Source: Escherichia coli
Lineage (GTDB): Bacteria > Pseudomonadota > Gammaproteobacteria > Enterobacterales > Enterobacteriaceae
DNA length: 64,000 nt
Direction: 5' to 3' (one strand)
Assembly: GCF_024502345.1 (NCBI RefSeq)
Contig: NZ_JALDNN010000003.1
The position numbers and the translations under genes are program-made. Under the pieces are notes generated by a model, which saw only the letters and a program-made list of their open reading frames with translations, had not been told where the DNA came from and did no database searches. Shown in pieces: positions 2,827 through 25,706 of the stretch. How positions within the stretch are numbered: position 1 is the first letter of the stretch; the number at the start of each line of letters is the position of its first letter.

Positions 2827-2862
2827 ACAATACCAGGTTCGATTCATTTCCTAATAACCTGA
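2827..2862 (-). promoter_or_regulatory. putative sigma70 promoter of the TTATTAG family (TCAGGTTATTAGGAAA - N - TATTGT)
   Basis: The sense-strand motif TCAGGTTATTAG is shared with five other sites. There is a 16-nt spacer to a -10-like TATTGT, about 45 nt upstream of the ParB-like-1 start. Confidence 0.45.
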
Positions 2863-2866
2863 GGCG

Positions 2867-2887
2867 AAAAAAAAGTAACTTTTTTTC
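2867..2887. promoter_or_regulatory. expanded variant of the GAAAAGTWACTTTTC box (G-A8-GTAAC-T7-CC)
   Basis: Near-perfect palindrome centred on GTAAC, about 95 bp upstream of the ParB-like-1 start. Confidence 0.5.
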
Positions 2888-2986
2888 CGGGGGTTATAGT
2901 ACGCGATCCGTCCGTTTTAAATTCTCGCTAAGGAGGGCAAATTTCACTTTAGTGTGAAAAGCGGGTACATAAAGCAGGAATATGTC

Positions 2987-3001
2987 GAAAAAGTTACTTT
3001 C
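2987..3001. promoter_or_regulatory. GAAAAGTWACTTTTC-type box (2 mismatches) with a CCCGGTTGCC extension
   Basis: The sequence gaaaaagttactttcccggttgcc has the same right-hand extension as the box at 20951. Confidence 0.5.
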
Positions 3002-3260
3002 CCGGTTGCCTGAAAAAATGCCGTTGCAGCAAACACAAGGTGTGAACACCCCCCCCGCCCCGGCGGCTCCGGGCAAAGGAGTATCCGATGAAGCTTTCCC
3101 GGCAGACCACAAATGATACGGCTGTAATCGAAGGCACCCGCAGATTACCGACCATATCGCCTCCCAGCGAGCCACCGAAGCCAAAAAAGACGGCATGAAT
3201 TTTAATGCAGGCGTTGAGCTTGCATCTAAAAGGAACTGTGCAACGAGGACAAACATTACC

Positions 3261-3461
3261 ATGATTGAACACCGCACAGAGATGCGCCAAACGGCCATTA
3301 AATCGCTTCAGGAAGCCGAAGAAGCATTGACGGCACTGGCTATGTCCTATGAGCTACAGCCCGATGATAAGGCCAGTTCGTGTCATCCACGGACCGGTAC
3401 TCTCTCCACGGCCAGCCAGGTACGGAAATTGCGCCGTGTCGTCGAAAAGCAGAAAACTTGA
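3261..3461 (+). CDS. hypothetical small protein, 66 aa (the ORF track starts at 3195)
   Basis: ATG at 3261 lies 11 nt after GAGGA. The ORF is followed by a good plus-strand hairpin with a T-run at 3540-3567. No homology is recognised. Confidence 0.35.
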   Translation: MIEHRTEMRQTAIKSLQEAEEALTALAMSYELQPDDKASSCHPRTGTLSTASQVRKLRRVVEKQKT

Positions 3462-3539
3462 AATTCGACAAGGCGGCGGGTAGCTATTTCCTGCATGTAC
3501 AAACTAACAAGGGTTTAGCCGACGATAGAAAGGAAAAAA

Positions 3540-3567
3540 GGGTTTCCCCGACCGGAGAAACCCTTTT
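3540..3567 (+). terminator. rho-independent-type terminator
   Basis: Stem GGGTTTC / GAAACCC around a 10-nt loop, followed by TTTT and preceded by an A-run, so it could act in both directions. Confidence 0.55.
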
Positions 3568-3606
3568 CTAAAGGTGCCATTAGCTTGCTGGCCCACATTC
3601 TGAAAT

Positions 3607-3626
3607 GAGGGGGGTCGCCCCCCCTC
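3607..3626 (-). terminator. GC-rich hairpin at the 3' end of the hok transcript
   Basis: 8-bp stem GAGGGGGG / CCCCCCTC with a 4-nt loop, immediately downstream of the hok stop. Confidence 0.45.
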
Positions 3627-3632
3627 TTTCAG

Positions 3633-3791
3633 CTACTTACCGGATTCGTAGTCCATCACAGCCGACACTTCCCGTGTACCGTCTTTCAGCCTCAGTTCGC
3701 AGAGCGAATTGCGCGTAAGCCAGGTGAATATCAACAGCGTAAGACATACTATCAATACGCACAAAACAACGGGTTGGTTCGGCAGTTTCAT
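3633..3791 (-). CDS. hok: Hok-family membrane toxin (type I toxin-antitoxin), 52 aa
   Basis: [52 protein letters not shown] has the same length and near-identical architecture as R1 Hok. The ORF-track entry 3633-3935 is an in-frame upstream extension (mok-like leader region). Confidence 0.9.
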
Positions 3792-3839
3792 GGCCTTCTT
3801 CTCCTTGCATTTAAGCGGGTAAGAGGCTACTCTGAATGT

Positions 3840-3899
3840 GACTAGCATACAGGGGCCTCGGGTTAATTTGAAAAAATTACTCGGGGCTTTCTGCTTTTT
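3840..3899 (+). ncRNA. sok: candidate Sok-like antisense RNA
   Basis: Antisense to the hok leader. TTGCAT (3805-3810), a 17-nt spacer and TACTCT (3828-3833) precede a long imperfect hairpin at 3856-3886 and a T-run ending near 3899. The ends are inferred, not measured. Confidence 0.4.
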
Positions 3900-4148
3900 A
3901 CCACAGTCAAACAGTGAATCTGCTGGCTGGGGCAAAAGCCTCCAGCACCGAGGTTATTATACCACCCCGCCCCTTTTAAACGAACAGATCGTTCTCCTAA
4001 ATATTTAATAAGTAAGTATTTCAGGTTTTGCTGCTTCGCAGGCTGTAACAGCAGGTGTCTGACGTAATAACTGATTAAACAGACGGATTCGAATCTCAAC
4101 ACTCAACGACGCCAGCTCGCCTGTTCCCCCGCTTCTTTCCGGCTGTAA

Positions 4149-4754
4149 TCAGTCCGTTTTCGTACCAGCGATCAGTGACAAACGGTGAGCACGAACACTA
4201 CTGTGCCGGAGGCTGTCCGGGTAATGGGCGATTTTCTCCAGTTCCTCATCGAGGCGGGTATACGTCAGCCTCCTGATTTTCAAGATTTCCTTGTGAAGCC
4301 AGCGTTTGATAAAGGGATTGCCGGAAAGCAGTACCAGGTCTGCATCCTCCACTTCATCAAAAAGCCAGACGGGTTTTGCCGGAGTAAGGCGGTAGAGCCA
4401 GGTGCGGGAAAACTCCCCCGTTGCAATCAGAAACCAGACAACCATGCCAAGTGCGAACTCGATGACCAGCATCAGGGTAAACTGAATATCCCGGACGTCA
4501 GGCTCTCCGGTAAAGCTCATTAGGCGGTCGCCAGTTGCCAGACGCTGAATAATACAGACCAGCATCAGCAGAGCCAGTAACAGCGCCATGAGCAGCCCGC
4601 CGTTCACTTCAAAAGTAGCTTTCTGGACGCGATCAGGCGGCACCTGCTTACGGTAGCGGCCGACCACATCACCAATCATTACCCTGATGGCTATGCGTTC
4701 TTCATCGACCGTTGTTTCGGTAAATCCGGACGGGCCCGTTTCTGTTTGATTCAT
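4149..4754 (-). CDS. hypothetical membrane protein, 201 aa
   Basis: Long ORF with two hydrophobic segments (LLMALLLALLMLVCII and FTLMLVIEFALGMVVWFLI). Confidence 0.6.
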   Translation of the reverse strand: MNQTETGPSGFTETTVDEERIAIRVMIGDVVGRYRKQVPPDRVQKATFEVNGGLLMALLLALLMLVCIIQRLATGDRLMSFTGEPDVRDIQFTLMLVIEFALGMVVWFLIATGEFSRTWLYRLTPAKPVWLFDEVEDADLVLLSGNPFIKRWLHKEILKIRRLTYTRLDEELEKIAHYPDSLRHSSVRAHRLSLIAGTKTD

Positions 4755-4967
4755 GTACCCTCTCCTCTCTCTGAAAAATAATGGTAAGACGCAAGCTGAT
4801 CATACCAGGTGAGCAGGAGTGGTTTTGTCGGTTAAAGGCTGGAAAAAAACGGTTAAAAAAAGAGGGAAATGACAGCAAGAAGGTGGGATGCAGTAAGCGG
4901 CTTTGGTTCCCTCCGGTTCTGTGGGGAGGAAACGGCCAGAACAGCAGACCGATACGATGGGCGGGCG

Positions 4968-5249
4968 CTATTTTGTATCCAGAATTCGTGCCTTTTCTTC
5001 CCGCGTCGCCAGTCGGGCACTTCCGGAACGGTCGCGGATCAGCAGTGGCTTTTCCTTTTTCCAACCAGTGATAGCCGTTTCCCCGAAACGACGCGGTGCA
5101 TTGCCATTCCAGCTGGCAATCACGTGATTATCGTGTACTTCCTTGATGACGACAGAATGAAGAGTCACCGTCTTAATGGTGGTGTTTCCCATTTTGGTCC
5201 GGGAGAGTGACCAGACGGTCATCCCCACCTCCAGCTGACTGAGTTTCAT
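4968..5249 (-). CDS. hypothetical protein, 93 aa
   Basis: Start moved to the ATG 5 nt after GGAG. The ORF-track start at 5279 has no RBS. Confidence 0.5.
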   Translation of the reverse strand: MKLSQLEVGMTVWSLSRTKMGNTTIKTVTLHSVVIKEVHDNHVIASWNGNAPRRFGETAITGWKKEKPLLIRDRSGSARLATREEKARILDTK

Positions 5250-5380
5250 CTTTACTCCGGTAATATCGGGATACATCATTAAACGACGTGGAGACGTAGG
5301 TTAGCATAAGCACTCACAGCGGATACTGCCGCCAGATAACAGGGTGAGGTATCCGCCATGAGCAGTCTTTACGGCTGGCG

Positions 5381-5551
5381 TTATTCGGCCAGGGCGCGGG
5401 TAATAGACGCACGCTGACGCTGGCGCTCAGCCTTACGCTGGCTGCGGCGATATAGCGGCTTCGCGGCAGCGTAGCGACAATCTTCCGGGTGGTACCAGCA
5501 ACAGCCGCAGGGCTCAGGCTGGGGTTTTCCGGCAAGTCCGAATGGTTTCAT
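5381..5551 (-). CDS. possible small Cys-rich basic protein, 56 aa (below the ORF-track cutoff)
   Basis: My own translation is MKPFGLAGKPQPEPCGCCWYHPEDCRYAAAKPLYRRSQRKAERQRQRASITRALAE. AAGGTG lies upstream of the ATG. It competes with the track ORF 5314-5535 in another frame. Confidence 0.3.
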   Translation of the reverse strand: MKPFGLAGKPQPEPCGCCWYHPEDCRYAAAKPLYRRSQRKAERQRQRASITRALAE

Positions 5552-5592
5552 AATGTCACCTTTTAAATGGAATAATGTTCAGGTCCCGTCCA

Positions 5593-5916
5593 TCAGGCCA
5601 CGGGTTCATTAATGAAGCGGCGTTGCATAAACAGGTACAGATAACCCTCTGGCGAGAACATACAAAGATTCTCGGTAATACAGGCATCGAGGTACTTCGT
5701 GTCGCCAAGGAGTCGCTTAATGACAGCCAGCTGGTTAGCCGCAGACTGAATCAGCGGATAGCCATTCACGGCACGATGAATACCTGAGTGGAATAACGAA
5801 CGAGCCTTTCCAATCTTTTCCCGGGTTGCGTCCATTTCCATATCGATAACAGACTGACGCGCAACATTAATAGCATTGCCGGATAACTCCGCGAAGCTAA
5901 CCAGAGGCTTATTCAT
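5593..5916 (-). CDS. hypothetical protein, 107 aa
   Basis: ORF with GGAAGGAG upstream of the ATG. No motif recognised. Confidence 0.55.
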   Translation of the reverse strand: MNKPLVSFAELSGNAINVARQSVIDMEMDATREKIGKARSLFHSGIHRAVNGYPLIQSAANQLAVIKRLLGDTKYLDACITENLCMFSPEGYLYLFMQRRFINEPVA

Positions 5917-6101
5917 AAAAAACTCCTTCCAGGTATGTGAGCTTATTATATCAATACGGACTTTGCCCCAAACAACCCGACTCGAAATATTTTGGAAATT
6001 ACTCTAATAACTAAAAATGGCACCCGGAAAATAGAATGAATTTATTTTAAGCTTGCCGAACATGGCTGGCGGCGGAATTAAATTTGGGTAATGACTCCAA
6101 C

Positions 6102-6605
6102 TTATTGATAGTGTTTTATGTTCAGATAATGCCCGATGACTTTGTCATGCTGCTCCACCGATTTTGAGAACGACAGCGACTTCCGTCCCAGCCGTGCCAG
6201 GTGCTGCCTCAGATTCAGGTTATGCCGCTCAATTCGCTGCGTATATCGCTTGCTGATTACGTGCAGCTTTCCCTTCAGGCGGGATTCATACAGCGGCCAG
6301 CCATCCGTCATCCATATCACCACGTCAAAGGGTGACAGCAGGCTCATAAGACGCCCCAGCGTCGCCATAGTGCGTTCACCGAATACGTGCGCAACAACCG
6401 TCTTCCGGAGCCTGTCATACGCGTAAAACAGCCAGCGCTGGCGCGATTTAGCCCCGACGTATCCCCACTGTTCGTCCATTTCCGCGCAGACGATGACGTC
6501 ACTGCCCGGCTGTATGCGCGAGGTTACCGACTGCGGCCTGAGTTTTTTAAATGGCGGAAAATCGTGTTGAGGCCAACGCCCATAATGCGGGCGGTTGCCC
6601 GGCAT
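6102..6605 (-). CDS. insB: IS1 InsB frame (expressed as the InsAB' frameshift fusion)
   Basis: Canonical InsB sequence that overlaps insA in the -1 frame. Confidence 0.9.
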
Positions 6606-6799
6606 CCAACGCCATTCATGGCCATATCAATGATTTTCTGGTGCGTACCGGGTTGAGAAGCGGTGTAAGTGAACTGCAGTTGCCATGTTTTACGGCAGTG
6701 AGAGCAGAGATAGCGCTGATGTCCGGCAGTGCTTTTGCCGTTACGCACCACCCCGTCAGTAGCTGAACAGGAGGGACAGCTGATAGAAACAGAAGCCAC
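6524..6799 (-). CDS. insA: IS1 InsA
   Basis: [43 protein letters not shown]... is the canonical InsA sequence. Confidence 0.95.
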
Positions 6800-6952
6800 T
6801 GGAGCACCTCAAAAACACCATCATACACTAAATCAGTAAGTTGGCAGCATCACCGAAAATAAAATAGAGAGAGTTTTCAATCCGCATGACTTTAAAAAAG
6901 ACAATTTTTAGAAATAAGCCGGATAAAAAAATAGCTTTATCCGGCACTCATA

Positions 6953-7903
6953 TTACAACCAGTTCTTCCGCTTAAAGTACAGATACGGTGCCAGGCCCGC
7001 GAGGATCATAAAGATAATCGCGGCAGGGTAGCCGAAGCTCCACTTCAGTTCTGGCATAAACTCAAAGTTCATGCCATAGCTGGAAGCAACGAGCGTCGGC
7101 GGCAGGAATACCACGGATACCACCGAGAAGATTTTGATGATGCGGTTCTGCTCGATGTTGATAAAACCCATTGCCGCCTGCATCAGGAAGTTCACCTTCT
7201 GGAACAGGGATTCGTTATGCGGCAGCAGGGATTCGATATCTCGCAGGATTTCACGCGCCTGCTCCAGTTGCCCACCCGGTAAACGCGCTTTACGCACCAG
7301 GAAGTTGAGCGCGCGCTGGGTATCCATCAGACACAGGCGAACTTTCCAGCCGATATCTTCCAGTTCCGCCAGCGTGGAGAGCGCCTCGTCGTACTCATCG
7401 CCCTGATGCCCTTCCATAATCACCCGGCTCAACTGCTCCAGGTCGCTATAGATATTTTCAATTTCATCTGCCAACTGTTCGATTTTGGTTTCGAACAGAT
7501 CCAGCAGCAACTCGTAGGCGTTACCGTCTACCATCGACTGGCTACGGGCACGCATACGATACAGACGAAAAGCGGGCAGTTCACGCTCACGCAGAGTAAA
7601 CAGACGACCATCACGGATGGTAAATGCCACAGTGGAGTTACCGGCGTGATCTTCCGCATCTTCAAAGAAGAAGAAGGAGTGAATATGCAGGCCGTCGTCG
7701 TCTTCAAAGAAACGTGCCGATGCTTCGATGTCTTCCAGTTCCGGGCGGGTTGCCAGGCTCTGGCCAAGTTCAGATTGTAAGCGCAGTCGCTCGTCGTCGT
7801 CCGGTTCGACAAGATCAATCCATACTGCATTTACAAGGGGTTGTGACTCTTCGACTTCCAGCCGGGTCAGTCGGTTATTTTCCAGTTGAAATGCGCTCAG
7901 CAT
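6953..7903 (-). CDS. corA: CorA magnesium/cobalt transporter, 316 aa, chromosomal type
   Basis: [38 protein letters not shown]...[13 protein letters not shown]...YFKRKNWL matches E. coli/Salmonella CorA, including the GMN motif. The native start is at 7903; the ORF track extends to 7918. Confidence 0.95.
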
Positions 7904-8302
7904 GACCGGGACTCCCAATGCTTAAAATATCGGACAGTTCGGTGGGCACACAGAAACAAATTGGGTTTCAGACCATTAAACAGCCTGACTCAGCGCGACG
8001 GGAAAAATTGAGGTCGCTGACAACCGCTAAGGCTATCAGCAAAAAGGGATAGCCTTAGGAGTTGATCCTGGATGACAGGATAGTGAGCCAGTATCTACTG
8101 GGTGTGTCCAAGGCGAATGTCCTCTTAGAGTGATCGTGCGCGCATGTTACGCCAGCAAAATTTTGCCGTCAACACGCAACAGAACACCACAGAACAATAG
8201 TTGAACTTCGCGCTTTTTGGTACTCGTCAAGGTCGCTAACAGGATAAAAAAATCCCACATCCAGGACCTATAATGGCGCATCAGCTACTCATTGGTAAAG
8301 GA

Positions 8303-8551
8303 ATGATCACCTTGAATCTCAAACGGATTTTTCTCGCCCTCACCTTACTTCCCTTGTTTGCTGTTGCCGCTGATGATTGCGCACTCTCAGATCCGACGCT
8401 GACCGTACAGGCGTATACCGTTAATCCTCAAACAGAGCGGGTGAAAATGTACTGGCAAAAAGCCAATGGCGAAGCGTGGGGAACGTTACATGCTCTGCTG
8501 GCGGATATTAATAGTCAGGGTCAGGTGCAGATGGCGATGAACGGCGGCATC
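8303..8551 (+). pseudogene. 3'-truncated signal-peptide gene divergent from corA (probably the chromosomal corA neighbour, yigE-like)
   Basis: MITLNLKRIFLALTLLPLFAVAADD...MAMNGGI then runs into unrelated AT-rich DNA at about 8551, where the 9-mer ttaaatttg begins. Confidence 0.5.
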
Positions 8552-8586
8552 TTAAATTTGACGGTTTTTGATATAAAATATAGAAA

Positions 8587-8613
8587 GAAGGAGGTTTTCT
8601 GAATACCTCCTTC
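8587..8613 (-). terminator. hairpin terminator of the long minus-strand gene string
   Basis: Perfect 9-bp stem GAAGGAGGT / ACCTCCTTC with a 9-nt loop, 9 nt past the stop of the 8622-8828 gene. Confidence 0.55.
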
Positions 8614-8621
8614 ACTGGCGC

Positions 8622-8828
8622 TCAGTTCGAGAATACGTTAACGCTGTACCGTTTACCGAGCACCTCGGCAGTGGTATCGACAATTTTCTGAATATCATCG
8701 GCAATCGCGGGTTTACTGAATGCGACGGTGTGCAGTTCACCAGCCTGTTCCGCCGTCGCACCATCATGAAAGCGGCTGGCATCGTAAAGCTGGACCCGGA
8801 GTGTCCGGGTATAATCGACATGGCCCAT
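8622..8828 (-). CDS. hypothetical protein, 68 aa
   Basis: ORF with AGGAGAGGAA upstream. It competes with 8612-8821 in another frame. Confidence 0.45.
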   Translation of the reverse strand: MGHVDYTRTLRVQLYDASRFHDGATAEQAGELHTVAFSKPAIADDIQKIVDTTAEVLGKRYSVNVFSN

Positions 8829-8862
8829 TATTCCTCTCCTGTTCAGTCAGGCGCTATACGCG

Positions 8863-9087
8863 TTAATAATCACTTTCTTCCGGTTGCGGCTGGGTGACAA
8901 ACTGGTACTTCACCCCATTAGGGACGCCAACGGCTTTTGCTACAGATTCACACAGCAGCGACAGGTCATTCAGAGTCATCGGATATTCGATATCGACGGA
9001 ATATAAGGCCCCGGCGTTCTCGGCCTCTTCGATATTTTTATACTGGGCACTGAAAATGGCTATGGTAGAGATTTCAAGGTTATGCAT
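8863..9087 (-). CDS. hypothetical acidic protein, 74 aa, paralog of 14964-15188
   Basis: Shares the block EYPMTLNDLSLLCESVAKA and the overall length with the 14964-15188 ORF. Confidence 0.65.
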   Translation of the reverse strand: MHNLEISTIAIFSAQYKNIEEAENAGALYSVDIEYPMTLNDLSLLCESVAKAVGVPNGVKYQFVTQPQPEESDY

Positions 9088-9104
9088 GAGTCAGTCCTTG
9101 TTAA

Positions 9105-9130
9105 TAAAAAAGAAGCCACCGTAAGGTGGC
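9105..9130 (-). terminator. rho-independent terminator
   Basis: GCCACC-GTAA-GGTGGC hairpin followed, on the minus strand, by a T-run. It lies just downstream of the 9141-9347 gene. Confidence 0.6.
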
Positions 9131-9140
9131 TGAATAAAGG

Positions 9141-9347
9141 TTAATGGACCTGGCTGGCCTTTTTTTCCGCGTTCTTGTTGTAATCAACGCGGGCAATAAC
9201 GACGGCAGCGGCCAGGAGTGCAGCGAGACCGCCGTAGAATACTGGTCGGGAGATATCGACGAACATATCGCTCAGGTTATCAACGCCGAGGAGAAATACG
9301 CAGATAATGACGATAAAGCGAACAGGTTTGCTGTAGAACAATTTCAT
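9141..9347 (-). CDS. small membrane protein, 68 aa
   Basis: Two hydrophobic helices (FIVIICVFLLGV and GGLAALLAAAVVIA). Confidence 0.55.
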   Translation of the reverse strand: MKLFYSKPVRFIVIICVFLLGVDNLSDMFVDISRPVFYGGLAALLAAAVVIARVDYNKNAEKKASQVH

Positions 9348-9546
9348 CAGGAGCTATCCTTCTGGGGTGAAATGACACCAGCATTACACCATATCAGATG
9401 CCAATTTTTTTTCGGTAACGGGCCTATTTTGACAAGAAAAAAGACACATCAGGGAGGCAATGACGAGAGTATTTTCGAGGTGCCTATGGCCTGTCACTTC
9501 CTGAACTCAGGAAAAGAACGATGCTGTAGAACACAATCGAAATATA

Positions 9547-9561
9547 GAAAAGTAACTTTTC
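9547..9561. promoter_or_regulatory. perfect GAAAAGTWACTTTTC box
   Basis: Reads GAAAAGTAACTTTTC. Intergenic, about 200 bp upstream of the 9347 start. Confidence 0.6.
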
Positions 9562-9742
9562 CACCGACGATATGTCCGGCGGCAAGTTATTCTTATGCAG
9601 GGCACAAATCAGTGAATTGGGTTCCGCGCGGGAAAGTCAAAAAAACTTGCATGTCGTTCCGGATGCCAGGCGACGTAGCACATAGATTTGGGCCTGTGTA
9701 AGCGGGGAGCTGGGACGTTTTGTGTCTGCCATAATGTTCCTT

Positions 9743-10924: not shown

Positions 10925-10960
10925 AATATAACAAACTGTCTCGTCTGGCTAATAACCCAG
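10925..10960 (-). promoter_or_regulatory. putative promoter of the TTATTAG family (TTATTAGCCAGA, TTAGCC-N16-TATATT)
   Basis: Conserved motif with a 16-nt spacer to the -10 hexamer, about 30 nt upstream of the 10896 ATG. Confidence 0.5.
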
Positions 10961-11104
10961 AATGAAAAAAATAAGCGATTTATTAGATAGGACTGAATTA
11001 AATTTAAATGGAGTGCAGCCGGACTCAGTTTAAAAACACTCCGCGCTAAAGGCAGAAAAAAGCCTTCCGAAAGGGAAGGCTTATGCACTACATCAGGAAA
11101 AGAA

Positions 11105-12078: not shown

Positions 12079-12253
12079 ATTCATGTCCTTGCAGGTAATT
12101 GAATGGATGGGATTTAAATTTATTATACTGAATCGAGTTACTAAACTAATATCCTTCAGGATGAAGAAAGGAATCATCCACCTTCAGTATGTATTCGACA
12201 TATAGGACACGTCTCTAAAATTTTTCGCGTTTTCGCGATTTACACCGACAGGC

Positions 12254-15784: not shown

Positions 15785-15799
15785 TAAAAGTTACTTTTC
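15785..15799. promoter_or_regulatory. GAAAAGTWACTTTTC box (1 mismatch, TAAAAGTTACTTTTC)
   Basis: 46 bp upstream of the 15739 start and 120 bp downstream of the dndC-like stop. Confidence 0.55.
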
Positions 15800-18473: not shown

Positions 18474-18920
18474 TCACGAATACTGCTGGGTAATTAAAAC
18501 CGTCGCATTTGATTCCAGCTCTGCCAACGGAATTAGGGGCGTATTGAGCATCATGTCATCGCCGCAATGACGGGGTACAGCCGTCAGATGAAATGATTCT
18601 TTCATGACCCGGATGGAAGTTGTTTCCGTGCGGCAGGAGGGCATTACGTCCCGGAGCATCGTTTCCTGTCCGCTGCTGTCACTTTCAATAAACGCAGCCT
18701 GCGACATGAGAACCTCAATGTCCTCTTCCAATGTTTCGGACCAGTGGCAGTCATAGAAGAAAAACTCGGCGGCGTACAAATCATTTTCTTTCACGTATGC
18801 CGCCAGTTCACGGATACGCTTAGCCAGCGACGTATCAATGGAAAAGAAGACGCTTTGCGGGACATCACTCGCAAATTCATTGATGCAGCTAGCGGACAAA
18901 ATCAGGATTTTATTGGTCAT
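18474..18920 (-). CDS. hypothetical protein, 148 aa
   Basis: Start at MTNKILIL with GGAG upstream. The track ORF extends to 18986. Confidence 0.5.
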   Translation of the reverse strand: MTNKILILSASCINEFASDVPQSVFFSIDTSLAKRIRELAAYVKENDLYAAEFFFYDCHWSETLEEDIEVLMSQAAFIESDSSGQETMLRDVMPSCRTETTSIRVMKESFHLTAVPRHCGDDMMLNTPLIPLAELESNATVLITQQYS

Positions 18921-18967
18921 TTTCAGCTCTCCATGCCACCGGCTGTTCCGGTGGCAATCAGGGATTA

Positions 18968-19774
18968 TCAGGCAGTCACGGGGCACAATTCGTCAAGTGA
19001 AGGCAGTAATTTGCTCAGGCTTTCGTACACGACGGGCATCAATTCAGTGACGCTGTGAAGCGCCATGCTGGTATTGTCTTCTTCGCTGAGAATGATAACT
19101 CCATCCTCACCAGGATTGTCGGGCGTGCTCTCGTCAGAGGCCAGGCGGTGGCGTGCAACGTCATAAGCCGATTCTGATTTTTTGCAGCTCATCAGATAGC
19201 ATTGAGTGTATGTGTATTCGTGGTTGTACTGGTTCACTTTCACCAACGCATACTGAACACCGGCATCATGAGCTTCGTTCATCAGGCGAGAAAAATTAAA
19301 GCCTTCTTCGTAGTGGTGTGTATCTTTAGTCACCACAATAGTCGCACCGCCGAACTCGTTTTCGCGTGGTCGGTCGCAGACGAAAGCGGCATTGATTGTG
19401 ACCATCTCAGGCAGGTTAAACACCGACAACACGGCAGTTGTTACCGCGATAGCGTGGTCGAGGTTAATGCTTTCATCATGGCAGATTGCCAGGCCTTTAC
19501 CGGTGATTTCCGCTTTGAGTTCCAGCTCGTAATTGTCTTCTGGTGACTCCGACTGACCAAAAGTCGGCTCAAACGGATCGCACTCCGGGTGGTTCTGAAT
19601 AATACCCAGGACAAGCAATTCAGTGAGGGAACACTCTGAAACCGGTTTAGACAGCAAGTGTTCACCTTCCGCCACATCCGTGTCTGTAACATACGCAATC
19701 GCGTCCAGTGCCATCTGTGCCTGTTCCTGTGAACAGAGAATTGTGAAGGATGCCTGAGTGTAATTGTTCGCCAT
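18968..19774 (-). CDS. hypothetical, visibly acidic protein, 268 aa
   Basis: Long ORF with AAGGAG upstream. No motif recognised. Confidence 0.6.
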   Translation of the reverse strand: MANNYTQASFTILCSQEQAQMALDAIAYVTDTDVAEGEHLLSKPVSECSLTELLVLGIIQNHPECDPFEPTFGQSESPEDNYELELKAEITGKGLAICHDESINLDHAIAVTTAVLSVFNLPEMVTINAAFVCDRPRENEFGGATIVVTKDTHHYEEGFNFSRLMNEAHDAGVQYALVKVNQYNHEYTYTQCYLMSCKKSESAYDVARHRLASDESTPDNPGEDGVIILSEEDNTSMALHSVTELMPVVYESLSKLLPSLDELCPVTA

Positions 19775-19961
19775 TGCATAACTCCTTATTTAATTAAATG
19801 TGATTGCTGTCTGTGAATAGATAATATCAAAACAGATACCTGCACCTAATAACCAATAATGAAATATGTTCGAAATTTTTATAGAGCAGACAGCGCCATA
19901 TTTAATAATCCAACTTTTATTCTGGATACGGTGTAAAATAAATATACGGGAAAACAAAAAA

Positions 19962-19976
19962 CCGCCACAAGGGCGG
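19962..19976 (-). terminator. rho-independent terminator
   Basis: CCGCC-ACAAG-GGCGG hairpin followed on the minus strand by TTTTTTGTTTT, downstream of the 20002-20265 gene. Confidence 0.55.
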
Positions 19977-20001
19977 AATTTATTAGACGGGAAAGATTTG
20001 G

Positions 20002-20265
20002 TTATACGGTATGTGTCAGGGAGGAAGCAATGAGCCTGTCTGGTAACAGTGATTGTAGGGACGCAGACGAAATAACAAGCACCTGATCCAAGTGCGCTAT
20101 ACCTTCGTCGATATGTTGCTGGAATGCCGCTTCAGCTTCACCGCAGGAGTCCGCTTCGACCAGCATCACCTCTTCCTCATCATCAAACATCATGCGGCCT
20201 GAGATAATATACAGTCGGCTTAAGTCCGGGGTATTTACAGCGATGCCCTGTTCGTTAATCATCAT
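20002..20265 (-). CDS. hypothetical acidic protein, 87 aa
   Basis: ORF with GGAGAAA upstream of the ATG. Confidence 0.5.
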   Translation of the reverse strand: MMINEQGIAVNTPDLSRLYIISGRMMFDDEEEVMLVEADSCGEAEAAFQQHIDEGIAHLDQVLVISSASLQSLLPDRLIASSLTHTV

Positions 20266-20321
20266 TTTTCTCCGCCTTCAATTTTTAAATTTGTCAGTTC
20301 TGCTACGTGTAAAAAACAGCA

Positions 20322-20654
20322 TCAGCCCTGTAAACCCGGACAGGTATCAACGTAGCTCATTGGTTTGCCGATCGCGGCGCTCAGGCGAAGGATTTCGCCG
20401 ATGGAGACGTACCGAAGCATTTCCGAACGCCCGTGTTTCTGGTATTCATCCACCGACATAGTGCGCCAGTCCTTGTGCGGTGCGGTTTTGCACAACTGCC
20501 AGTTGTCGGCAGTGGTCGGGCGACGCAGGACATATACACCCAGCGAAGGCGTGAGGCCACTGCCGAATGCCTGCTCCACCACAATACGTACTTCAGAGCC
20601 GTCGGGGCGTTTCAGTGTCTGAGTAATTTTAGTAATGAGCTGTTCGGATTCCAT
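20322..20654 (-). CDS. hypothetical protein, 110 aa
   Basis: ORF with a TTATTAG-family promoter 40-70 nt upstream. Confidence 0.55.
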   Translation of the reverse strand: MESEQLITKITQTLKRPDGSEVRIVVEQAFGSGLTPSLGVYVLRRPTTADNWQLCKTAPHKDWRTMSVDEYQKHGRSEMLRYVSIGEILRLSAAIGKPMSYVDTCPGLQG

Positions 20655-20693
20655 ACTATTAACCTCGACCGTCAGTTGGGTTGCTGTAGGGAT

Positions 20694-20725
20694 ATTTTAC
20701 CAAAGTCGGCTCTCTGGCTAATAAG
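20694..20725 (-). promoter_or_regulatory. putative promoter of the TTATTAG family (CTTATTAGCCAGA, TTAGCC-N16-TAAAAT)
   Basis: Conserved motif with a 16-nt spacer to a good -10 hexamer. Confidence 0.5.
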
Positions 20726-20950
20726 TAAGAAGTGATTTTTTTCATTCATTGAAGTTTCTTTCATATGGAATGAATATTAATTATTTAAACTGACTCGGCC
20801 TATTTTAATTATTATTAATCAGGGTATTTAATGTGCAAATTGGCAGGGCGCTGAATTACCGGGCATCCATTGCCCGGACAGTTTATTAAAAAAAACTGAT
20901 AATGCCCCGCCGGAGAATTACGCCAATTCCTGTGAAGGCATGGTCTGGCT

Positions 20951-20965
20951 GAAAAGTTACTTTTC
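20951..20965. promoter_or_regulatory. perfect GAAAAGTWACTTTTC box with a CCCGGTTGCC extension
   Basis: The sequence is GAAAAGTTACTTTTCccggttgcc, and the site is intergenic. Confidence 0.6.
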
Positions 20966-21153
20966 CCGGTTGCCCTGCCTTGATCCCGTATCGTTTATAC
21001 CGGTCTGCTCTTACATCCTACCTGGGCAGCAGCTGGCTACGGTGATCGGGTATTAAAATAGAACCGGTCTGTTTTACCGCAGATTCAACGCCCCGCACCT
21101 AGCGTAAAATCGCCTTTCCCGGATGCCCTCCTTAGTCGTCCGGCACGATGGCG

Positions 21154-22324
21154 CTACTCCCAGCGATAAGGGGTAAAATAGTCCTCGTTAACAGCAAGAA
21201 ATTCGGTCAGGGAATGCATCGCCTTCGTGTCATATGCCGTCACAATAAAACGGTATCCGTCCACCGTTTCGATGTAGCTGATCCCCCGTGGCGTGCAACT
21301 GGATTTCACAACTTCCGCCGTCATCATAAACTGCCCTTGCGGGAATTCCGGTGACAGGTAGATAAAGCCAGTGGTGGCTGATGACGGGTTGGCATTCATC
21401 AGCACGCTGTTAAATTGCTTTCCGTGCCGCGCCGGAATCAACGCGCTCCCCGCTGTCGCCTGAGTCATCAACTGGCGGATCAGGGTTTCCTCTTTATCTG
21501 AGCTGTAGGCGCGAACATCATTTTCAGCCCCGGAGCGTGAGTAGACGCCGACATGAGCAAGACGTCGGTACTCGTTACGCATATAGGCATGACAGGATGC
21601 ACCGGCTCGCCCCTGAAGAGTGACGCCAAAGTCTTCACATAACATCAGTACCTGGCGCAGGTTTTTGTCATAGACCGTGGCAGAGAGCGCCAGGTTATAG
21701 CTGATGAATGTCAGCTCAAAAACCCGGGTATGTGCGTCACTAAGGTGTGCCTCCATGCGGATCACTGGTTTCTCCGTCATTGGAAACGGCGTACCGGCCA
21801 AGCAGTACGAGGTAACATCGCTAAAACACTCGTCGATCACACTGGCAATGACCGTATCGGCGTCAATGACAGCCGGAGCTGGAACATAAATCTGAAACTG
21901 TCCTTCAGTGCCCGGTTGGATCAGGACGGGGTATAGACGCGGGGAATTGAGTTGTTCGCAGTCGGCATTGATCAGTTCTGTCCAACCGGGTTTTCCGGTG
22001 GGAGCATCAAGGCGAAGACCCAGGTTATCGCAGAAGTCGACGATCTGGCGGGAGTGCTCCACCATCACTGCCCCGGAGAGTGTCAGACCGTGCGTAACCA
22101 TCTGCATCTCACTCGTCCGGGTCTGGGAGTTCTGGGACCAGGGCTGTAATGAAAGCGTCGTCCGACTTAAGGAGGGAATGATGGTTTCATTCAGAGGTTC
22201 AATAAGCTGGCAATGCGCATACAGCCGGGTGGCGAGGAAGTCAAATATGAAGCTTGCCTGTTGTTTTGTGCTGGCCTGAATATAAAACATCGCATCCATG
22301 CCTGAATCCCGGGATGAAATACCG
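21154..22324 (-). pseudogene. IS1-interrupted gene for a roughly 394-aa protein of unknown function
   Basis: The reading frame continues across the IS1. The original first codons, ATG AAA CTT TTC GGT ATT TC, lie at 23112-23093. The 9-bp duplication gaaataccg sits at 22316-22324 and 23093-23101. Confidence 0.75.
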
Positions 22325-22379
22325 GGTGATGCTGCCAACTTACTGATTTAGTGTATGATGGTGTTTTTGAGGTGCTCCA

Positions 22380-22655
22380 GTGGCTTCTGTTTCTATCAGC
22401 TGTCCCTCCTGTTCAGCTACTGACGGGGTGGTGCGTAACGGCAAAAGCACCGCCGGACATCAGCGCTATCTCTGCTCTCACTGCCGTAAAACATGGCAAC
22501 TGCAGTTCACTTACACCGCTTCTCAACCCGGTACGCACCAGAAAATCATTGATATGGCCATGAATGGCGTTGGATGCCGGGCAACAGCCCGCATTATGGG
22601 CGTTGGCCTCAACACGATTTTACGTCACTTAAAAAACTCAGGCCGCAGTCGGTAA
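22380..22655 (+). CDS. insA: IS1 InsA
   Basis: Canonical InsA sequence. Confidence 0.95.
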
Positions 22656-23077
22656 CCTCGCGCATACAGCCGGGCAGTGACGTCATCGTCTGCGCGGAAA
22701 TGGACGAACAGTGGGGATACGTCGGGGCTAAATCGCGCCAGCGCTGGCTGTTTTACGCGTATGACAGGCTCCGGAAGACGGTTGTTGCGCACGTATTCGG
22801 TGAACGCACTATGGCGACGCTGGGGCGTCTTATGAGCCTGCTGTCACCCTTTGACGTGGTGATATGGATGACGGATGGCTGGCCGCTGTATGAATCCCGC
22901 CTGAAGGGAAAGCTGCACGTAATCAGCAAGCGATATACGCAGCGAATTGAGCGGCATAACCTGAATCTGAGGCAGCACCTGGCACGGCTGGGACGGAAGT
23001 CGCTGTCGTTCTCAAAATCGGTGGAGCTGCATGACAAAGTCATCGGGCATTATCTGAACATAAAACACTATCAATAA
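22574..23077 (+). CDS. insB: IS1 InsB frame
   Basis: Canonical InsB sequence. A few substitutions distinguish it from copy A. Confidence 0.9.
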
Positions 23078-23120
23078 GTTGGAGTCATTACCGAAATACC
23101 GAAAAGTTTCATTTTTTACC

Positions 23121-23417
23121 TTAATGGATGAGCGATTTATAATCATGCGCCGACAGGTGGACGTTATGTACGCCATCGTTCCACTCAAAGAATAGCCGAT
23201 ATTTTGAATTAACTCGAATGGAAGAATACCGGTTTGCGGTCATTCTTAAGCGTTCGTACCGCAAACTACCAGATAACAATTCGCGTTCGTTTTTAACATT
23301 ATTTAACGTTTCCAGTCTGCATGAAATCGCATTAATCAGTTCAGCAGGAATGCCTGCCGTGGATTTTCCATTACGGAAAAACTTTTCCAATCGCCTGTCT
23401 TTAAATGAATGGATCAT
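23121..23417 (-). CDS. HigB-like (COG3549 'killer protein', RelE superfamily) toxin homolog, 98 aa
   Basis: MIHSFKDRRLEKFF..G...GIPA....I..RL...........L....S.RVN..YRLFFEW..G....V.L..HDY follows the HigB pattern. The usual HPLKGDR segment is replaced by ERLRMTANR. Confidence 0.6.
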   Translation of the reverse strand: MIHSFKDRRLEKFFRNGKSTAGIPAELINAISCRLETLNNVKNERELLSGSLRYERLRMTANRYSSIRVNSKYRLFFEWNDGVHNVHLSAHDYKSLIH

Positions 23418-23480
23418 ATTTTCCTCCGTAACGAAATGAGTTTAAATAAATAAGAATTAAAAAAGCCTAAATCTAATTTA

Positions 23481-23948
23481 TTACATCCCGAGGATTCTGG
23501 CTGCGACCGTCAGTTGTTTATCACTTAATGGAAATTTGCGTGATAACGTCGACTTCAGGCTGTTCAAAAAACTGTTCTCGCCGTCTTGCTGCGTGATGGC
23601 GTCCACCAGTTCTTGGTGGTTCTGACACCAGAGGTTGAACGCGGAAGTCTTTGATTGAACAGCACGTTGACGCTCTGCTGCCTGAGCGGCTGAGATCTTG
23701 CGAGCAGCTTCTGGGTATATGCGATACAGTGCAGTCAGGGTGTAACAGGTACGGGTAGTGACCAGGCTATAGCCAGTGGCATTACAGGCAATACAGCGGC
23801 TCTTATAAAAGTGATTGCGTTCGCCACGTCCATTGCATTTATTGCAAGTAACACGGTAAATATATTCCCCGGTGCCTTTTACTGAATCAATACACTTAAT
23901 CTTAGCGTTATCGATTGCCATTCCGCTACGGTCAAAGTATTTATCCAT
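23481..23948 (-). CDS. protein with a DnaJ-type CxxCxGxG zinc-finger pair, 155 aa; paralog of 44649-45356
   Basis: Contains CNKCNGRGE...CIACNATGYS. The C-terminal region resembles that of the 235-aa ORF. Confidence 0.6.
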   Translation of the reverse strand: MDKYFDRSGMAIDNAKIKCIDSVKGTGEYIYRVTCNKCNGRGERNHFYKSRCIACNATGYSLVTTRTCYTLTALYRIYPEAARKISAAQAAERQRAVQSKTSAFNLWCQNHQELVDAITQQDGENSFLNSLKSTLSRKFPLSDKQLTVAARILGM

Positions 23949-23977
23949 TTTTGATTCCTCAGGTTTGGTCTGAAGTA

Positions 23978-24013
23978 ATAATGACAGATTGGCCTCGCTG
24001 GCTAATAACCTGA
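23978..24013 (-). promoter_or_regulatory. putative promoter of the TTATTAG family (TCAGGTTATTAGCCAGC, TTAGCC-N16-CATTAT)
   Basis: The 17-nt motif is identical to the one at 25671-25687. It lies about 50 nt upstream of the 23948 start. Confidence 0.5.
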
Positions 24014-24661
24014 ACGAACGTTTTTTGAAAATAAATCAGGAAGGATGATTGAGATGATTTATATATGCAGGATTCAATTTTAATGGAGGGTATTTTCAGA
24101 ATTATCTGTTTACAAAAAACGAAACAAATCCTAATGAGGCATTTATTGCATCACAATAAAAGTGATTGCTTTTCACTCATTTGAGTAGCGATGCTTAAGT
24201 ATTTATCCGTTTTAAGGTATAACAGCAGCGTGATACGACTCAGGGAATGCCTGTCCGTCACCTTAATGATGCTTTACTTCCGGTTGCCGAAACAGTCCAT
24301 ATGGCTGACATGTATTACACGCACGGTCTAACGCAGTTCCGGGGGGTGGCACAGCGGCGTGATGCCGCTTTAATCTGGAAAACGCAGGCATCTACTGGTG
24401 CCTCAGGATCGCGGCACTCGCAAGCTGAAACACCAGAGCCTGTTCGTCTTCCGGCTGTATCGCTCGTCCCCGTCTACAAAACCCGTCTCATCCGCAGGTA
24501 TCGCTGGCGCACTCCCAGACGGTTAGAGGCTTTCGGGAACTGCCTGGGTCAAAGAACACCGGCGTTCAGGTAGCTGTTGAAATGGACATCTACACGTTTT
24601 TGTTCAAGTGATTCAGTTGTGGTGAGGGCATAACGGGTAATGCCCTCCCGTGAAGCCCTGA

Positions 24662-24676
24662 GAAAAGTTACTTTTC
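24662..24676. promoter_or_regulatory. perfect GAAAAGTWACTTTTC box
   Basis: Reads GAAAAGTTACTTTTC, about 70 bp upstream of the 24747-24778 promoter candidate. Confidence 0.6.
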
Positions 24677-24746
24677 CAGGATTAATGCAGTCTGGCTTTT
24701 AATATAAATTCAGGGGATATTTTTTAAAAAAAATACCTGTCGTCAA

Positions 24747-24778
24747 CTTATTAGAAAAGTAAGTCAAAATGCTAGAGT
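24747..24778 (+). promoter_or_regulatory. putative promoter of the TTATTAG family (CTTATTAGAAAAG, TTAGAA-N16-TAGAGT)
   Basis: Same TTATTAG core and 16-nt spacing as the other sites, 30 nt upstream of the 24808 ATG. Confidence 0.45.
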
Positions 24779-24807
24779 GTTCTCATTCAAAAAGAGGAGA
24801 ACTAACC

Positions 24808-25584
24808 ATGCCAAAATATTTGTTACCTGCCGAGCTTGCGGAAATTGTTTGTGGATTACTGGTGCAACCAGCATTATTGAATGAATTAAAAACACCAGCC
24901 ACGCATAAAGCATTTATGCAGGACATCGGCGAGCTGGTGGCGAAACATTGCGGCGGTCAAATTGACGGCGTGATCATGCCTGAGGTACGCGATGAAGACA
25001 GCCAGGCCGATTACCTGACATCTCCAGATGAAACCCCTTATATTGTTGTCTCTCCTGGCCAGGACATGCACTCCCTCACAGATAACGTCTGGCGTCATCA
25101 TGCCCGGGATGGCTGGCTTGACCATATCAAAGGCAGTGTCGAAGAAAGCCCTGATGAACTGCCGACCCACAAAGAGTGCGCTGTACGCCGCTACACCCTC
25201 CAGCGTCTGCTCCTTCAGGAAGAAACCAGCCATGCTAATCTGCCAGTACAGGTGGTGCGGATGTGTGAGTACAGCACCGACGATGTTGAGCAGACCGATT
25301 CTTCAGCAGAGTTTAACGTCACAATGGCGCTCGGTGGTCATGCCATGCTGGCAGTAAAAGATACAGATTCCCGTCTGGTGATGGCCCTGACACTCTTGAT
25401 TGAAAATGGAGTTCCCTCTGTCCACGTTAATGCGGGTGACACTGATCCTTCAGTTCTGCACATCCGGGCAGCTCACGGTGGTCTGGTTCTTTCAACCGAC
25501 TCCCTTAATCATGATTTCAGTATTTCGCCCTCTGACCAGTATACCTACGGACGCCCTGGATTATTATTGAAAGCCGCCTACTGA
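24808..25584 (+). CDS. hypothetical protein, 258 aa, tandem paralog A
   Basis: AGGAG lies 8 nt upstream of the ATG. Homologous end to end with 25734-26510, for example LAEIVCGLLVQPALLNEL vs LATIITALLVKPELLGEL. Confidence 0.7.
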   Translation: MPKYLLPAELAEIVCGLLVQPALLNELKTPATHKAFMQDIGELVAKHCGGQIDGVIMPEVRDEDSQADYLTSPDETPYIVVSPGQDMHSLTDNVWRHHARDGWLDHIKGSVEESPDELPTHKECAVRRYTLQRLLLQEETSHANLPVQVVRMCEYSTDDVEQTDSSAEFNVTMALGGHAMLAVKDTDSRLVMALTLLIENGVPSVHVNAGDTDPSVLHIRAAHGGLVLSTDSLNHDFSISPSDQYTYGRPGLLLKAAY

Positions 25585-25670
25585 TTTATTAATTCAAAAT
25601 CCGTCATTATTATTTACCCCCATTTTTCGCCCCTAACTTATGGGGCGAGTATATTTTAAAAAACTTTCTT

Positions 25671-25706
25671 TCAGGTTATTAGCCAGCAAACTAGAACTGG
25701 TAGAAT
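25671..25706 (+). promoter_or_regulatory. putative promoter of the TTATTAG family (TCAGGTTATTAGCCAGC, TTAGCC-N16-TAGAAT)
   Basis: Conserved motif with a good -10 hexamer, 28 nt upstream of the 25734 ATG. Confidence 0.55.

Follow-up and report, generated by a model that had tools for sequence, protein, structure and literature searches.

Here, we report that the TTATTAG sites in a 64,000-nucleotide stretch of Escherichia coli DNA (hereafter, the window, meaning the whole stretch analysed) very probably form a genuine promoter family whose box is under selection. On balance, the sequence comparisons point to sigma-70 extended -10 promoters specific to IncHI1 and IncHI2 plasmids, in which the box would serve as the docking site for a plasmid repressor; the assignment of the IncHI1/IncHI2 box reader as a repressor is in itself tentative, and we would not claim even chances for it. 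At least eight operons of unknown genes are predicted to share, probably, one plasmid regulator.

Members of the family and their common architecture

The window is backbone DNA of an IncHI1 (R27-type) resistance plasmid with 99.8% identity to R27/pHCM1, and the promoter-headed operons sit in the variable region between the RepHI1B/Ig-like gene cluster and Tra1. All six sites of the first-pass annotation were recovered with the same strands, coordinates and sequences. The 16-nt spacing it described between TTAG(C/G/A)(C/A) and a -10-like hexamer holds as well (15 nt when counted between TTATTAG and TG), as does the position of the start codon after the -10, which we measured as 27–49 nt. This six-site observation is correct but understated, i.e., there are more members and more shared features. 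Two clear members, 19852(-) and 5975(-), and a weak one, 12152(-), are added here (Table 1), and features missed at first reading, i.e., an extended -10 (TGnTAnnnT), an A/T tract of UP-like character and, some 7 nt past the -10, a C-A as putative start, are found in all six of the original sites. Each family promoter is the head of a short operon bounded by terminators, and the products are mostly acidic proteins, function not known. The 155-aa zinc-finger operon also includes a 393-aa gene, which an IS cuts off here.

Table 1. Family promoters and associated elements in the window
Feature	Position	Strand	Box	TG and -10	Start codon	Remarks
ParB-like-1 promoter (401 aa)	2827..2890	-	CAGGTTATTAGGAAA, 2861-2847	TGg 2835-2833; TATTGT 2832-2827	ATG 2777	
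13-bp palindrome at ParB-like-1 promoter	2871-2883					AAAAGTAACTTTT; about -57
107-aa gene promoter	5945..5979	-	CGGGTTGTTTGGGGC	TGa; TATAAT	5916	degenerate member; 5975(-): gggTTGTTTGggg, 15 nt, TGaTATAAT
DUF957 (102 aa)/DUF3085 operon promoter	10925..10985	-	TGGGTTATTAGCCAG, 10959-10945	TGt; TATATT 10930-10925	10896	A/T tract
Weak candidate 12152(-)	12122..12156	-	AAGGATATTAGTTTA, ATATTAG	no TG; perfect TATAAT		small ORF downstream
268-aa/148-aa/DndC-like 791-aa operon promoter	19821..19880	-	TTGGTTATTAGGTGC, 19856-19842	TGaTATTAT; TATTAT 19826-19821	19774	19852(-): ggTTATTAGg, 16 nt (others 15)
Bidirectional terminator-like hairpin	19962..19976	.				parts 87-aa gene from 268-aa promoter
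110-aa/87-aa unit promoter	20694..20745	-	TTACTTATTAGCCAG, 20728-20714	TGg; TAAAAT 20699-20694	20654	
155-aa zinc-finger and RelE/ParE-family toxin gene promoter	23978..24035	-	CAGGTTATTAGCCAG, 24012-23998	TGt; CATTAT 23983-23978	23948	
Paralogue A promoter (258 aa)	24720..24778	+	CAACTTATTAGAAAA, 24744-24758	TGc; TAGAGT 24773-24778	24808	A/T tract
Terminator-like hairpin of paralogue A	25626-25649	+				paralogue B promoter directly after
Paralogue B promoter	25626..25706 (including hairpin)	+	CAGGTTATTAGCCAG, 25672-25686	TGg; TAGAAT 25701-25706	25734	A/T tract

The composite TTATTAG-N15-TGNYANNNT has six matches against 0.01 expected, a number reached in none of 100 shuffles, and GGTTATTAGCCAG with up to two mismatches has seven against 1.15 expected. 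By itself, the heptamer TTATTAG occurs 12 times versus 7.6 expected, i.e., it is not significantly enriched. The sites score 36–69 bits with two position weight matrices (PWMs), the 155-aa zinc-finger promoter being the highest, versus a best of 13.6 bits among 20 shuffled windows. Against the same shuffle maximum, 5975(-) scores 26.8–27.5 bits; 12152(-), at 15.8 bits, lies just over it and is at most a possible weak member, which we hold with low confidence.

An information profile was built on 19 sites from three plasmid lineages. In this profile the box, cAGG-TTATTAG-CCag, occupies -41 to -27 with its centre at -34, where the -35 hexamer would stand. The peaks are TTATTAG (18–19 of 19 sites per position), TG (16–17 of 19), and A-11 and T-7 (19 of 19), so the invariance of the heptamer equals or exceeds that of the most conserved -10 positions; conservation also reaches 5' of any possible -35 hexamer, and the C-A at the expected start position is conserved. 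The spacer between box and TG is not conserved, and the distance from box to -10 is constant in 17 of 19 promoters. The only +1 spacing, at 19852(-), is itself conserved between lineages, recurring in the IncHI2-type orthologue (L023). The asymmetry of the box is invariant (T at -37 and G at -31 in 18–19 of 19 sites), and a box without its accompanying -10 was never seen. As in sigma-70 extended -10 promoters, TG stands at -15/-14 in 8/8 clear window members. There is no usable -35, as a canonical two-hexamer promoter scan misses every member. About 8–22 nt upstream of the box (about -60 to -45) lies an A/T tract of the AAAAwnTTTC type, found at every site; of the 19 profiled sites, 10–16 show an A run at -55 to -50 and 14–15 a T run at -48/-47. 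This register is about 2 nt off the published UP consensus, AAAWWTWTTTT / AAAAAA at -40 to -60, and in one case the tract doubles as a terminator tail. A Shine-Dalgarno sequence precedes the ATG downstream, and terminators lie between units. At the level of sequence, the proposal of a promoter family is supported by the extended -10, the UP-like tract, the C-A, the Shine-Dalgarno sequences, the terminators and the same architecture across three lineages.

Conservation within the IncHI group

A wider search, suggested by the first-pass annotation, located the family in R27, in a lineage of 81% identity and in IncHI2. All members in R27 lie within 63–96 kb, with none in 1–50 kb, and among 185,579 species genomes scanned, only IncHI1/HI2-type sequences contained the family. 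In a pNDM-MAR-type IncHI-like plasmid, of which 40 kb were examined, it was not found, even before the homologue of the 155-aa gene. The box is retained at orthologous promoters in both the 81% lineage and IncHI2, including that of the 155-aa zinc-finger operon. In the IncHI2 orthologues (coding identity about 66%), box and -10 are kept while the upstream DNA is unalignable; the DUF957/DUF3085 promoter is one such case. The ParB-like-1 layout recurs in IncHI2 as palindrome, CTATTAGgaaa and TGgTATTGT, and the same promoter type precedes genes that the 81% lineage and IncHI2 have but the window lacks. This retention of the box in IncHI2 suggests that the operons are probably under one shared plasmid regulator. 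The idea that the box goes beyond what sigma-70 needs and may be the site of a common regulator gains support from phylogenetic footprinting.

What may read the box

In the explanation we favor, RNA polymerase would be recruited via the UP-like tract and the extended -10, with a -35 element not needed. The box would be the common docking site of one IncHI-encoded protein, tying at least eight operons into one regulon. This protein would be a repressor occupying the region of sigma-70 domain 4, and the promoter set would fire on entry to a new cell and then be damped after plasmid establishment. A UP-like tract, TGn and a good -10 should be strong unaided, which speaks for a repressor. The published R27 arrays (PMC7366339, Table S4) also bear on this point. 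To assign array ORF numbers to genes, we counted from two anchors, IS10 and flmA; R0050-R0075 are placed by this count only. By this count-based mapping, expression is seen from promoters with weaker boxes (about 2200 units for ParB-like-1, about 1200 for the 107-aa gene and about 3000 for DUF3085), and the block with the best boxes, made up of the paralogues together with the 155-aa operon, has the score 'not expressed' (PMC7366339), a pattern that fits a repressor. Please note that probe effects on these arrays are large, with tenfold differences between neighbouring genes of one operon, and that H-NS silencing could explain the silent block. Domain scans of 19 window proteins (Pfam, NCBIfam, PHROGs) detected a DNA-binding domain only in ParB-like-1 and gave no candidate repressor for the box, which speaks against a repressor. 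Likewise, the asymmetry, the constant -10 distance and the lack of any box away from a -10 are equally good or better for an activator, a sigma partner or another element that is read along with RNA polymerase.

The main rival, unlikely overall in our estimate, is that the promoters are activator-dependent: the box would be a surrogate -35 for a plasmid-encoded activator or sigma-70 partner, and the operons would be off unless the factor is made, e.g., during transfer. Such a scheme is akin to that of phage T4 middle promoters, in which a MotA box centred near -30 works with a sigma-70 -10, and a class II activator would be compatible with it as well. The constant box distance with its conserved exception, the invariant asymmetry, the strict company of the -10, the missing -35 and the seeming silence of the best-box promoters in donor cultures are all consistent with it. 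However, UP-like tracts and a near-consensus extended -10 normally give activator independence, weaker-box members are clearly expressed in steady state, and the served genes yielded no activator domain, whether MotA/AsiA-like or other.

It is quite unlikely that no dedicated factor is involved, i.e., that the box is a lineage-specific weak -35 (TTAGCC, 16-nt spacing) with neighbouring bases, ancestral and kept for promoter strength. TTAGCC does equal TTGACA at three of six positions with an allowed spacer, and the 24008(-)/25676(+) pair is 75% identical over 60 nt. However, the strongest conservation is in TTATTAG and reaches cAGG, both upstream of any -35 hexamer and outside the known contacts of sigma-70 with the -35. 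In invariance, the heptamer matches or surpasses the best -10 positions. Since extended -10 promoters can do without a -35, such strict conservation between lineages of 66% identity would be unexpected. Paralogous members, moreover, have unrelated spacers and flanks.

A recombination or module-shuffling signal is very unlikely; here the cassette would be a short homology patch for module swaps among IncHI plasmids, with a secondary promoter role, as in the promoter-stem-loop cassettes (PeSL) of T4-type phages. The first-pass annotation had also offered a copied promoter cassette marking module boundaries, and this stands in part. Lineage-specific extra modules each bring the same promoter, and where a 6.1-kb indel separates the window from the 81% lineage, its beginning lies 18 nt upstream of a box and its end at a 13-bp palindrome; homology of the 110-aa/87-aa promoter region to that lineage ends at 20742, 18 nt before the box. 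Recent copying did not hold up: apart from 24008(-) and 25676(+), spacers and flanks are unrelated, and therefore the members are not recent copies, while the likeness of that one pair indicates that some duplication has occurred. Against the recombination reading, the conserved bases (about 15 + 9) are too short for efficient homologous recombination, a single boundary was examined, and the fixed -10 spacing and the 27–49 nt to the start codons are explained by promoter function, not recombination.

Relation to known systems and significance for IncHI plasmids

No published description of a TTATTAG promoter motif was found in the literature, and several known systems resemble the family in part. 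The IncN (pKM101/R46) CUP with ArdK/ArdR likewise has a repeated promoter unit before small operons (ardA, ardB, ccg), forming one regulon in the establishment region. Its copies, however, are near-identical over more than 150 bp, whereas the family here shares only about 15 + 9 bases and has no -35. In R46, the upstream regions agree almost perfectly over about 170 bp and include a canonical TTGACT -35. An IncN CUP repeat was ruled out, as there is no long repeat here and no PWM match of at least 8 bits in R46. The IncP KorA/KorB and IncW (R388) networks are similar in that short sites over the -35/-10 of many backbone promoters answer to few plasmid repressors; those operators, however, are 12–13-bp palindromes for dimers, whereas the IncHI box is asymmetric and at one fixed -10 distance. 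A KorA/KorB-type palindromic operator was ruled out, GGTTA-T-TAGCC being symmetric at only 8/10 arm positions with the asymmetric positions invariant; the separate 13-bp palindrome AAAAGTWACTTTT of the same plasmid is closer to a KorB-type site than the box is.

T4 middle promoters (MotA box with sigma-70 -10) and PeSL likewise have an asymmetric box replacing the -35 at a fixed distance, often with an extended -10, ahead of numerous small ORFan genes in a variable region. Here, however, the box has an unrelated sequence, no MotA/AsiA homologue was detected (no such domain in the 19 window proteins scanned), and the host element is a conjugative plasmid. A T4 MotA-type middle promoter (TTTGCTTTA-like box near -30) was ruled out, since the IncHI box differs and is centred at -34. 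The Frpo/ssi promoters of plasmid leading regions are also early establishment-gene promoters on conjugative plasmids, but the Frpo type needs a long single-stranded DNA hairpin; a Frpo single-strand promoter was ruled out, DNA folding of seven sites being no better than shuffled (z -1.1 to +0.4). Nor do the sites qualify as lambdoid Q-loading promoters, which are defined by a Q-family antiterminator encoded nearby and a -10-like pause element within the initially transcribed region.

A bolder and improbable extension is a two-layer IncHI1/HI2 code. In the first layer, the -35-replacing box cAGGTTATTAGCC would be read by a new plasmid RNA polymerase partner and would switch on at least ten operons of acidic establishment or anti-defence proteins. 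In the second, the palindrome, which has about 42 copies per plasmid and is present across the IncHI lineages examined, would be read by one of three ParB-like paralogues in the KorB manner. Both layers would converge at the ParB-like-1 promoter.

Among the traits carried by IncHI1 and IncHI2 plasmids are multidrug resistance in typhoid Salmonella and mcr-1 in E. coli, and about two-thirds of the genes on these plasmids are without known function. To our knowledge, work on IncHI regulation has dealt almost exclusively with the transfer genes (HtdA, TrhR/TrhY, H-NS/Hha). The shared box would place eight to ten or more operons, made up of unknown genes, in one regulon, and many of these genes have small acidic products. 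The 15-bp box may serve as bait for finding the regulator, and it is also a useful marker when promoters and gene modules of the IncHI group are annotated.

Architecture and significance of the box promoters

The first-pass annotation had described six promoters, serving ParB-like-1, DUF957 (102 aa), a 110-aa gene, a 155-aa zinc-finger gene and paralogues A and B, that share the heptamer TTATTAG (hereafter the box; in its wider form cAGG-TTATTAG-CCag, at -41 to -27, where a -35 element usually stands), and a site-by-site sequence check found all six as described. The family is real and larger than first reported: its claim of at least six modules is borne out by scans that add 19852(-), 5975(-) and the marginal 12152(-), named by window position and strand (see the table). 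The promoters lie 27-49 nt ahead of the first start codon of their unit, close to the 28-50 nt proposed. The spacing described as fixed is identical in 17 of 19 pooled sites, but the spacer of 19852(-) is 16 nt instead of 15 nt.

The heptamer by itself is not enriched in the window (12 copies versus 7.6 expected). The composite TTATTAG-N15-TGNYANNNT has 6 matches versus 0.01 expected, GGTTATTAGCCAG with two or fewer mismatches has 7 versus 1.15, and position-weight matrices (two were used) score the six sites at 36-69 bits, the top score of 20 shuffled windows being 13.6; the composite counts and matrix scores together rule out a chance origin. Three features were absent from the first account: when the sites are aligned on the heptamer, every one carries a TG one base 5' of the -10, i.e., an extended -10; an A/T tract of the AAAAwnTTTC type is located ~8-22 nt upstream of every box; and a C-A falls ~7 nt past the -10, at the expected start position. 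A conventional TTGACA/TATAAT scan detected no family member, which means that a usable -35 hexamer is absent.

Features of the window and of R27
Feature	Position	Description
Added member	19852(-)	ggTTATTAGg, 16 nt, TGaTATTAT; serves the 268-aa gene
Added member	5975(-)	gggTTGTTTGggg, then TGaTATAAT; serves the 107-aa gene
Candidate member	12152(-)	marginal
Terminator-like hairpin	25626-25649	between neighbouring units
Terminator-like hairpin	19962-19976	between neighbouring units
Palindrome AAAAGTWACTTTT	2871-2883, 9548-9560, 15786-15798, 20952-20964, 24663-24675, 38787-38799, 44286-44298, 54481-54493	window copies
Palindrome, one mismatch		nine window copies
Family members in R27	63082(-), 64010(-), 64750(+), 67257(+), 68129(+), 84156(+), 89136(+), 92256(+), 94688(+), 95551(+)	94688(+) aggTTATTAGccag...TATAAT; 95551(+) aggTTGTTAGcc
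Left-end element	15-1077	36-nt inverted repeats at its ends; 322-aa ORF inside
IS1-type copies	6082-6854, 22325-23097	inverted 773-nt copies, 99% identical, IS1-type in appearance
20-bp repeats	34444-34920	CCGTACCCGGTATAGTGGAT
43/44-bp repeats	47045-49070	AAAGCATTTG
Tandem arrays	59526-62538	52-54-bp units

Distribution among IncHI plasmids and module boundaries

Over window 23400-26600, identity is 99.8% with pHCM1 (Salmonella Typhi CT18) and other IncHI1 plasmids, ~81% with a second lineage (represented by L002) and ~66% with IncHI2 plasmids; a close relative, pLAO65, is of type MOBH / MPF_F. The window is antiparallel to R27 (NC_002305), running from ~95 kb down to ~24 kb, which places the promoter family in the poorly characterised backbone from the RepHI1B / Ig-like gene cluster to Tra1.

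The motif search of the rest of the plasmid and its relatives, proposed in the first-pass annotation, found members in R27, in L002 and in the IncHI2 plasmids L008 and L036, restricted to IncHI1/HI2-type DNA. Within R27 they keep to one region: the first 1-50 kb (Tra2, partition genes, RepHI1A) holds none, and three regex matches elsewhere are unlike the family. Two R27 promoters, 94688(+) and 95551(+), are missing from the window, where the left-end element stands at their counterpart. In one genome per species from 185,579 species, the pattern GGTTATTAGCCAG-N11-TGNYANNNT matched 25 loci; all 11 enterobacterial ones are IncHI1/HI2-type orthologous promoters at 57-61 bits, and the remaining 14 score 21 bits or less. 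The IncN plasmid R46 has no family promoter, nor do the 40 kb examined of an IncHI-like Klebsiella plasmid (pNDM-MAR type), which has a homologue of the 155-aa gene at 28% identity.

L002 carries the box and its spacing at every orthologous promoter and also ahead of two genes missing from the window. The IncHI2 sites above background (seven in L008, two or three in L036) include orthologues of the 155-aa, DUF957, 110-aa, paralogue and ParB-like-1 promoters, and the longer spacing of the 268-aa gene promoter recurs in its IncHI2-type orthologue. In orthologous upstream alignments the box and the -10 are islands of identity; for DUF957 and the 110-aa gene, the DNA upstream of the box is unalignable. 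The pooled profile (19 sites, three lineages) has each position of TTATTAG in 18-19 of 19 sites, TG in 16-17, A-11 and T-7 in all 19, and a spacer that is nearly information-free. In four family members (window 2833-2837; L002 17704(-) and 18196(-); L008 13874(-)), the extended -10 lies inside a Dcm methylation site, CCTGG (for example aaCCTGGTATTGT), an overlap that may be a coincidence.

The suggestion that the promoter is a copied cassette marking module boundaries stands in part. Paralogous members have dissimilar spacers and flanks except for one pair (75% over 60 nt) and hence are not recent copies, but the extra genes of other lineages do carry the same promoter type. Window 20743-20951 (209 bp) replaces a 6.1-kb block of L002 (12218-18333), one edge of which is 18 nt upstream of the box of the 110-aa gene and the other falls precisely on a palindrome copy, AAAAGTTACTTTT. 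The block encodes a toxin-antitoxin pair of RES/Xre type and a DNA methyltransferase; it also has small ORFs, of which two possess TTATTAG promoters of their own. An exchange of units promoter-first would be consistent with this single indel, which does not establish it.

Genes served and neighbouring repeats

The units served are ParB-like-1; the 107-aa gene; DUF957 / DUF3085; the 268-aa, 148-aa and 791-aa genes (the 791-aa product has a DndC-like PAPS-reductase domain); the 110-aa and 87-aa genes; the 155-aa zinc-finger gene together with genes for a RelE/ParE-family toxin and a 393-aa protein; and the two 258-aa paralogues. One IS1-type copy (22325-23097) sits between the toxin gene and the 393-aa gene, separating the latter, whose 5' end is changed, from the 24008(-) promoter. 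The products (genes within window 1225-27040) are mostly small, acidic and without family assignment, with pI of 4.1-5.2 (DUF957 4.2, DUF3085 4.7, 268-aa 4.3, 148-aa 4.4, 87-aa 4.1, paralogues 4.5-4.8); the 155-, 110- and 107-aa proteins are basic. DNA mimics and anti-defence proteins typically have such a profile.

Distinct from the box is the 13-bp palindrome AAAAGTWACTTTT, with 17 copies in the window versus 0.16 expected, 42 in R27 and 24 in 40 kb of the pNDM-MAR-type plasmid. At least 9 of the 12 placeable copies are intergenic. In IncHI1 and IncHI2 alike, one lies near position -57 of the promoter of ParB-like-1, and another is ~100 bp upstream of a gene annotated 'DNA-binding protein' (WP_001281654.1), which is R0042, 'partition protein', by ORF-order mapping. 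The palindrome has the look of a dispersed operator of the KorB/parS type, serving one of three ParB-like paralogues; it is not described in the literature searched. As for other repeats, the tandem arrays match in position the unannotated parA-trhC gap of R27, and the AAAGCATTTG and CCGTACCCGGTATAGTGGAT repeats resemble, by position, iterons of the two RepHI1 replicons.

Reading of the box and direction of control

A promoter with an extended -10, above all one that also has an UP element, can do without a -35, so sigma-70 requirements do not account for the strict conservation of the fifteen bases from -41 to -27, in agreement with the earlier view that the upstream extension of the motif exceeds them. 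We infer that the box is read by a dedicated protein, and we favour a repressor because the core promoter elements look strong unaided. The published R27 microarrays also agree, with ORF numbers assigned by count, taking the IS10 copies (R0076, R0085) and flmA (R0101) as anchors: clear signals belong to weaker-box members, i.e., ParB-like-1 (R0104, ~2200 units), the 107-aa gene (R0098, ~1200) and DUF3085 (R0089, ~3000), and R0062-R0066, by this mapping the contiguous block with the best boxes, are classed there as not expressed (Table S4 of PMC7366339). This argument is weak, since R0050-R0075 are mapped by counting only and probes in one operon differ tenfold. Most genes with values in this part of the table rise 2- to 18-fold at 25 °C when htdA is mutated, which may be indirect.

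The main rival to a repressor is an activator or sigma appropriation, i.e., a factor that reads the box while working with RNA polymerase. The fixed distance between box and -10, the invariant asymmetry (the box is partly two-fold symmetric, GGTTA-T-TAGCC, yet the asymmetric positions are themselves invariant) and the lack of boxes away from promoters suit such a factor at least as well as a repressor. In anatomy the nearest parallel is the middle promoters of phage T4, which combine a sigma-70 -10 with a box set at a constant distance from it in place of the -35; there is neither sequence nor protein similarity to them.

Among 19 window proteins searched with Pfam, NCBIfam and PHROGs, ParB-like-1 is the sole one with a recognisable DNA-binding domain (HTH_ParB). 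Co-occurrence with the box is undiagnostic: both the ParB-like-1 and the 155-aa families are found in Klebsiella IncHI-like plasmids, of which the one examined is boxless over the 40 kb around its 155-aa homologue, so presence or absence singles out neither protein. Two zinc knuckles (CxxCxGxG) occur in the 155-aa protein, whose PHROG match to Q-like antiterminators is weak (E = 4e-4). It has homologues only in IncHI plasmids, IncHI-like Klebsiella plasmids included, and Q-like antitermination was dropped because the family promoters have no conserved pause element. We know of no host transcription factor or alternative sigma factor whose motif convincingly matches the box, and two sites show a SlyA-like similarity that the family as a whole does not conserve. 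A Frpo-type single-strand promoter is rejected, as single-strand folding of the sites does not surpass that of shuffled sequence (z -1.1 to +0.4).

A full-text literature search for GTTATTAGCC and the palindrome gave nothing relevant, the sole match being an unrelated chromosomal hha primer, and nothing relevant was found on IncHI promoter regulation; the family and its box motif are apparently undescribed. The logic is that of the IncP (KorA/KorB), IncW and IncN (CUP/ArdK) plasmid regulons. However, Kor operators are palindromes and the box is not, and the IncN CUP is a long repeated unit whose -35 is canonical, neither of which applies here; direct comparison with R46 rules out identity with the CUP. 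The family, in which an unusual asymmetric box replaces the -35, is best filed with plasmid regulon promoters, a known class.
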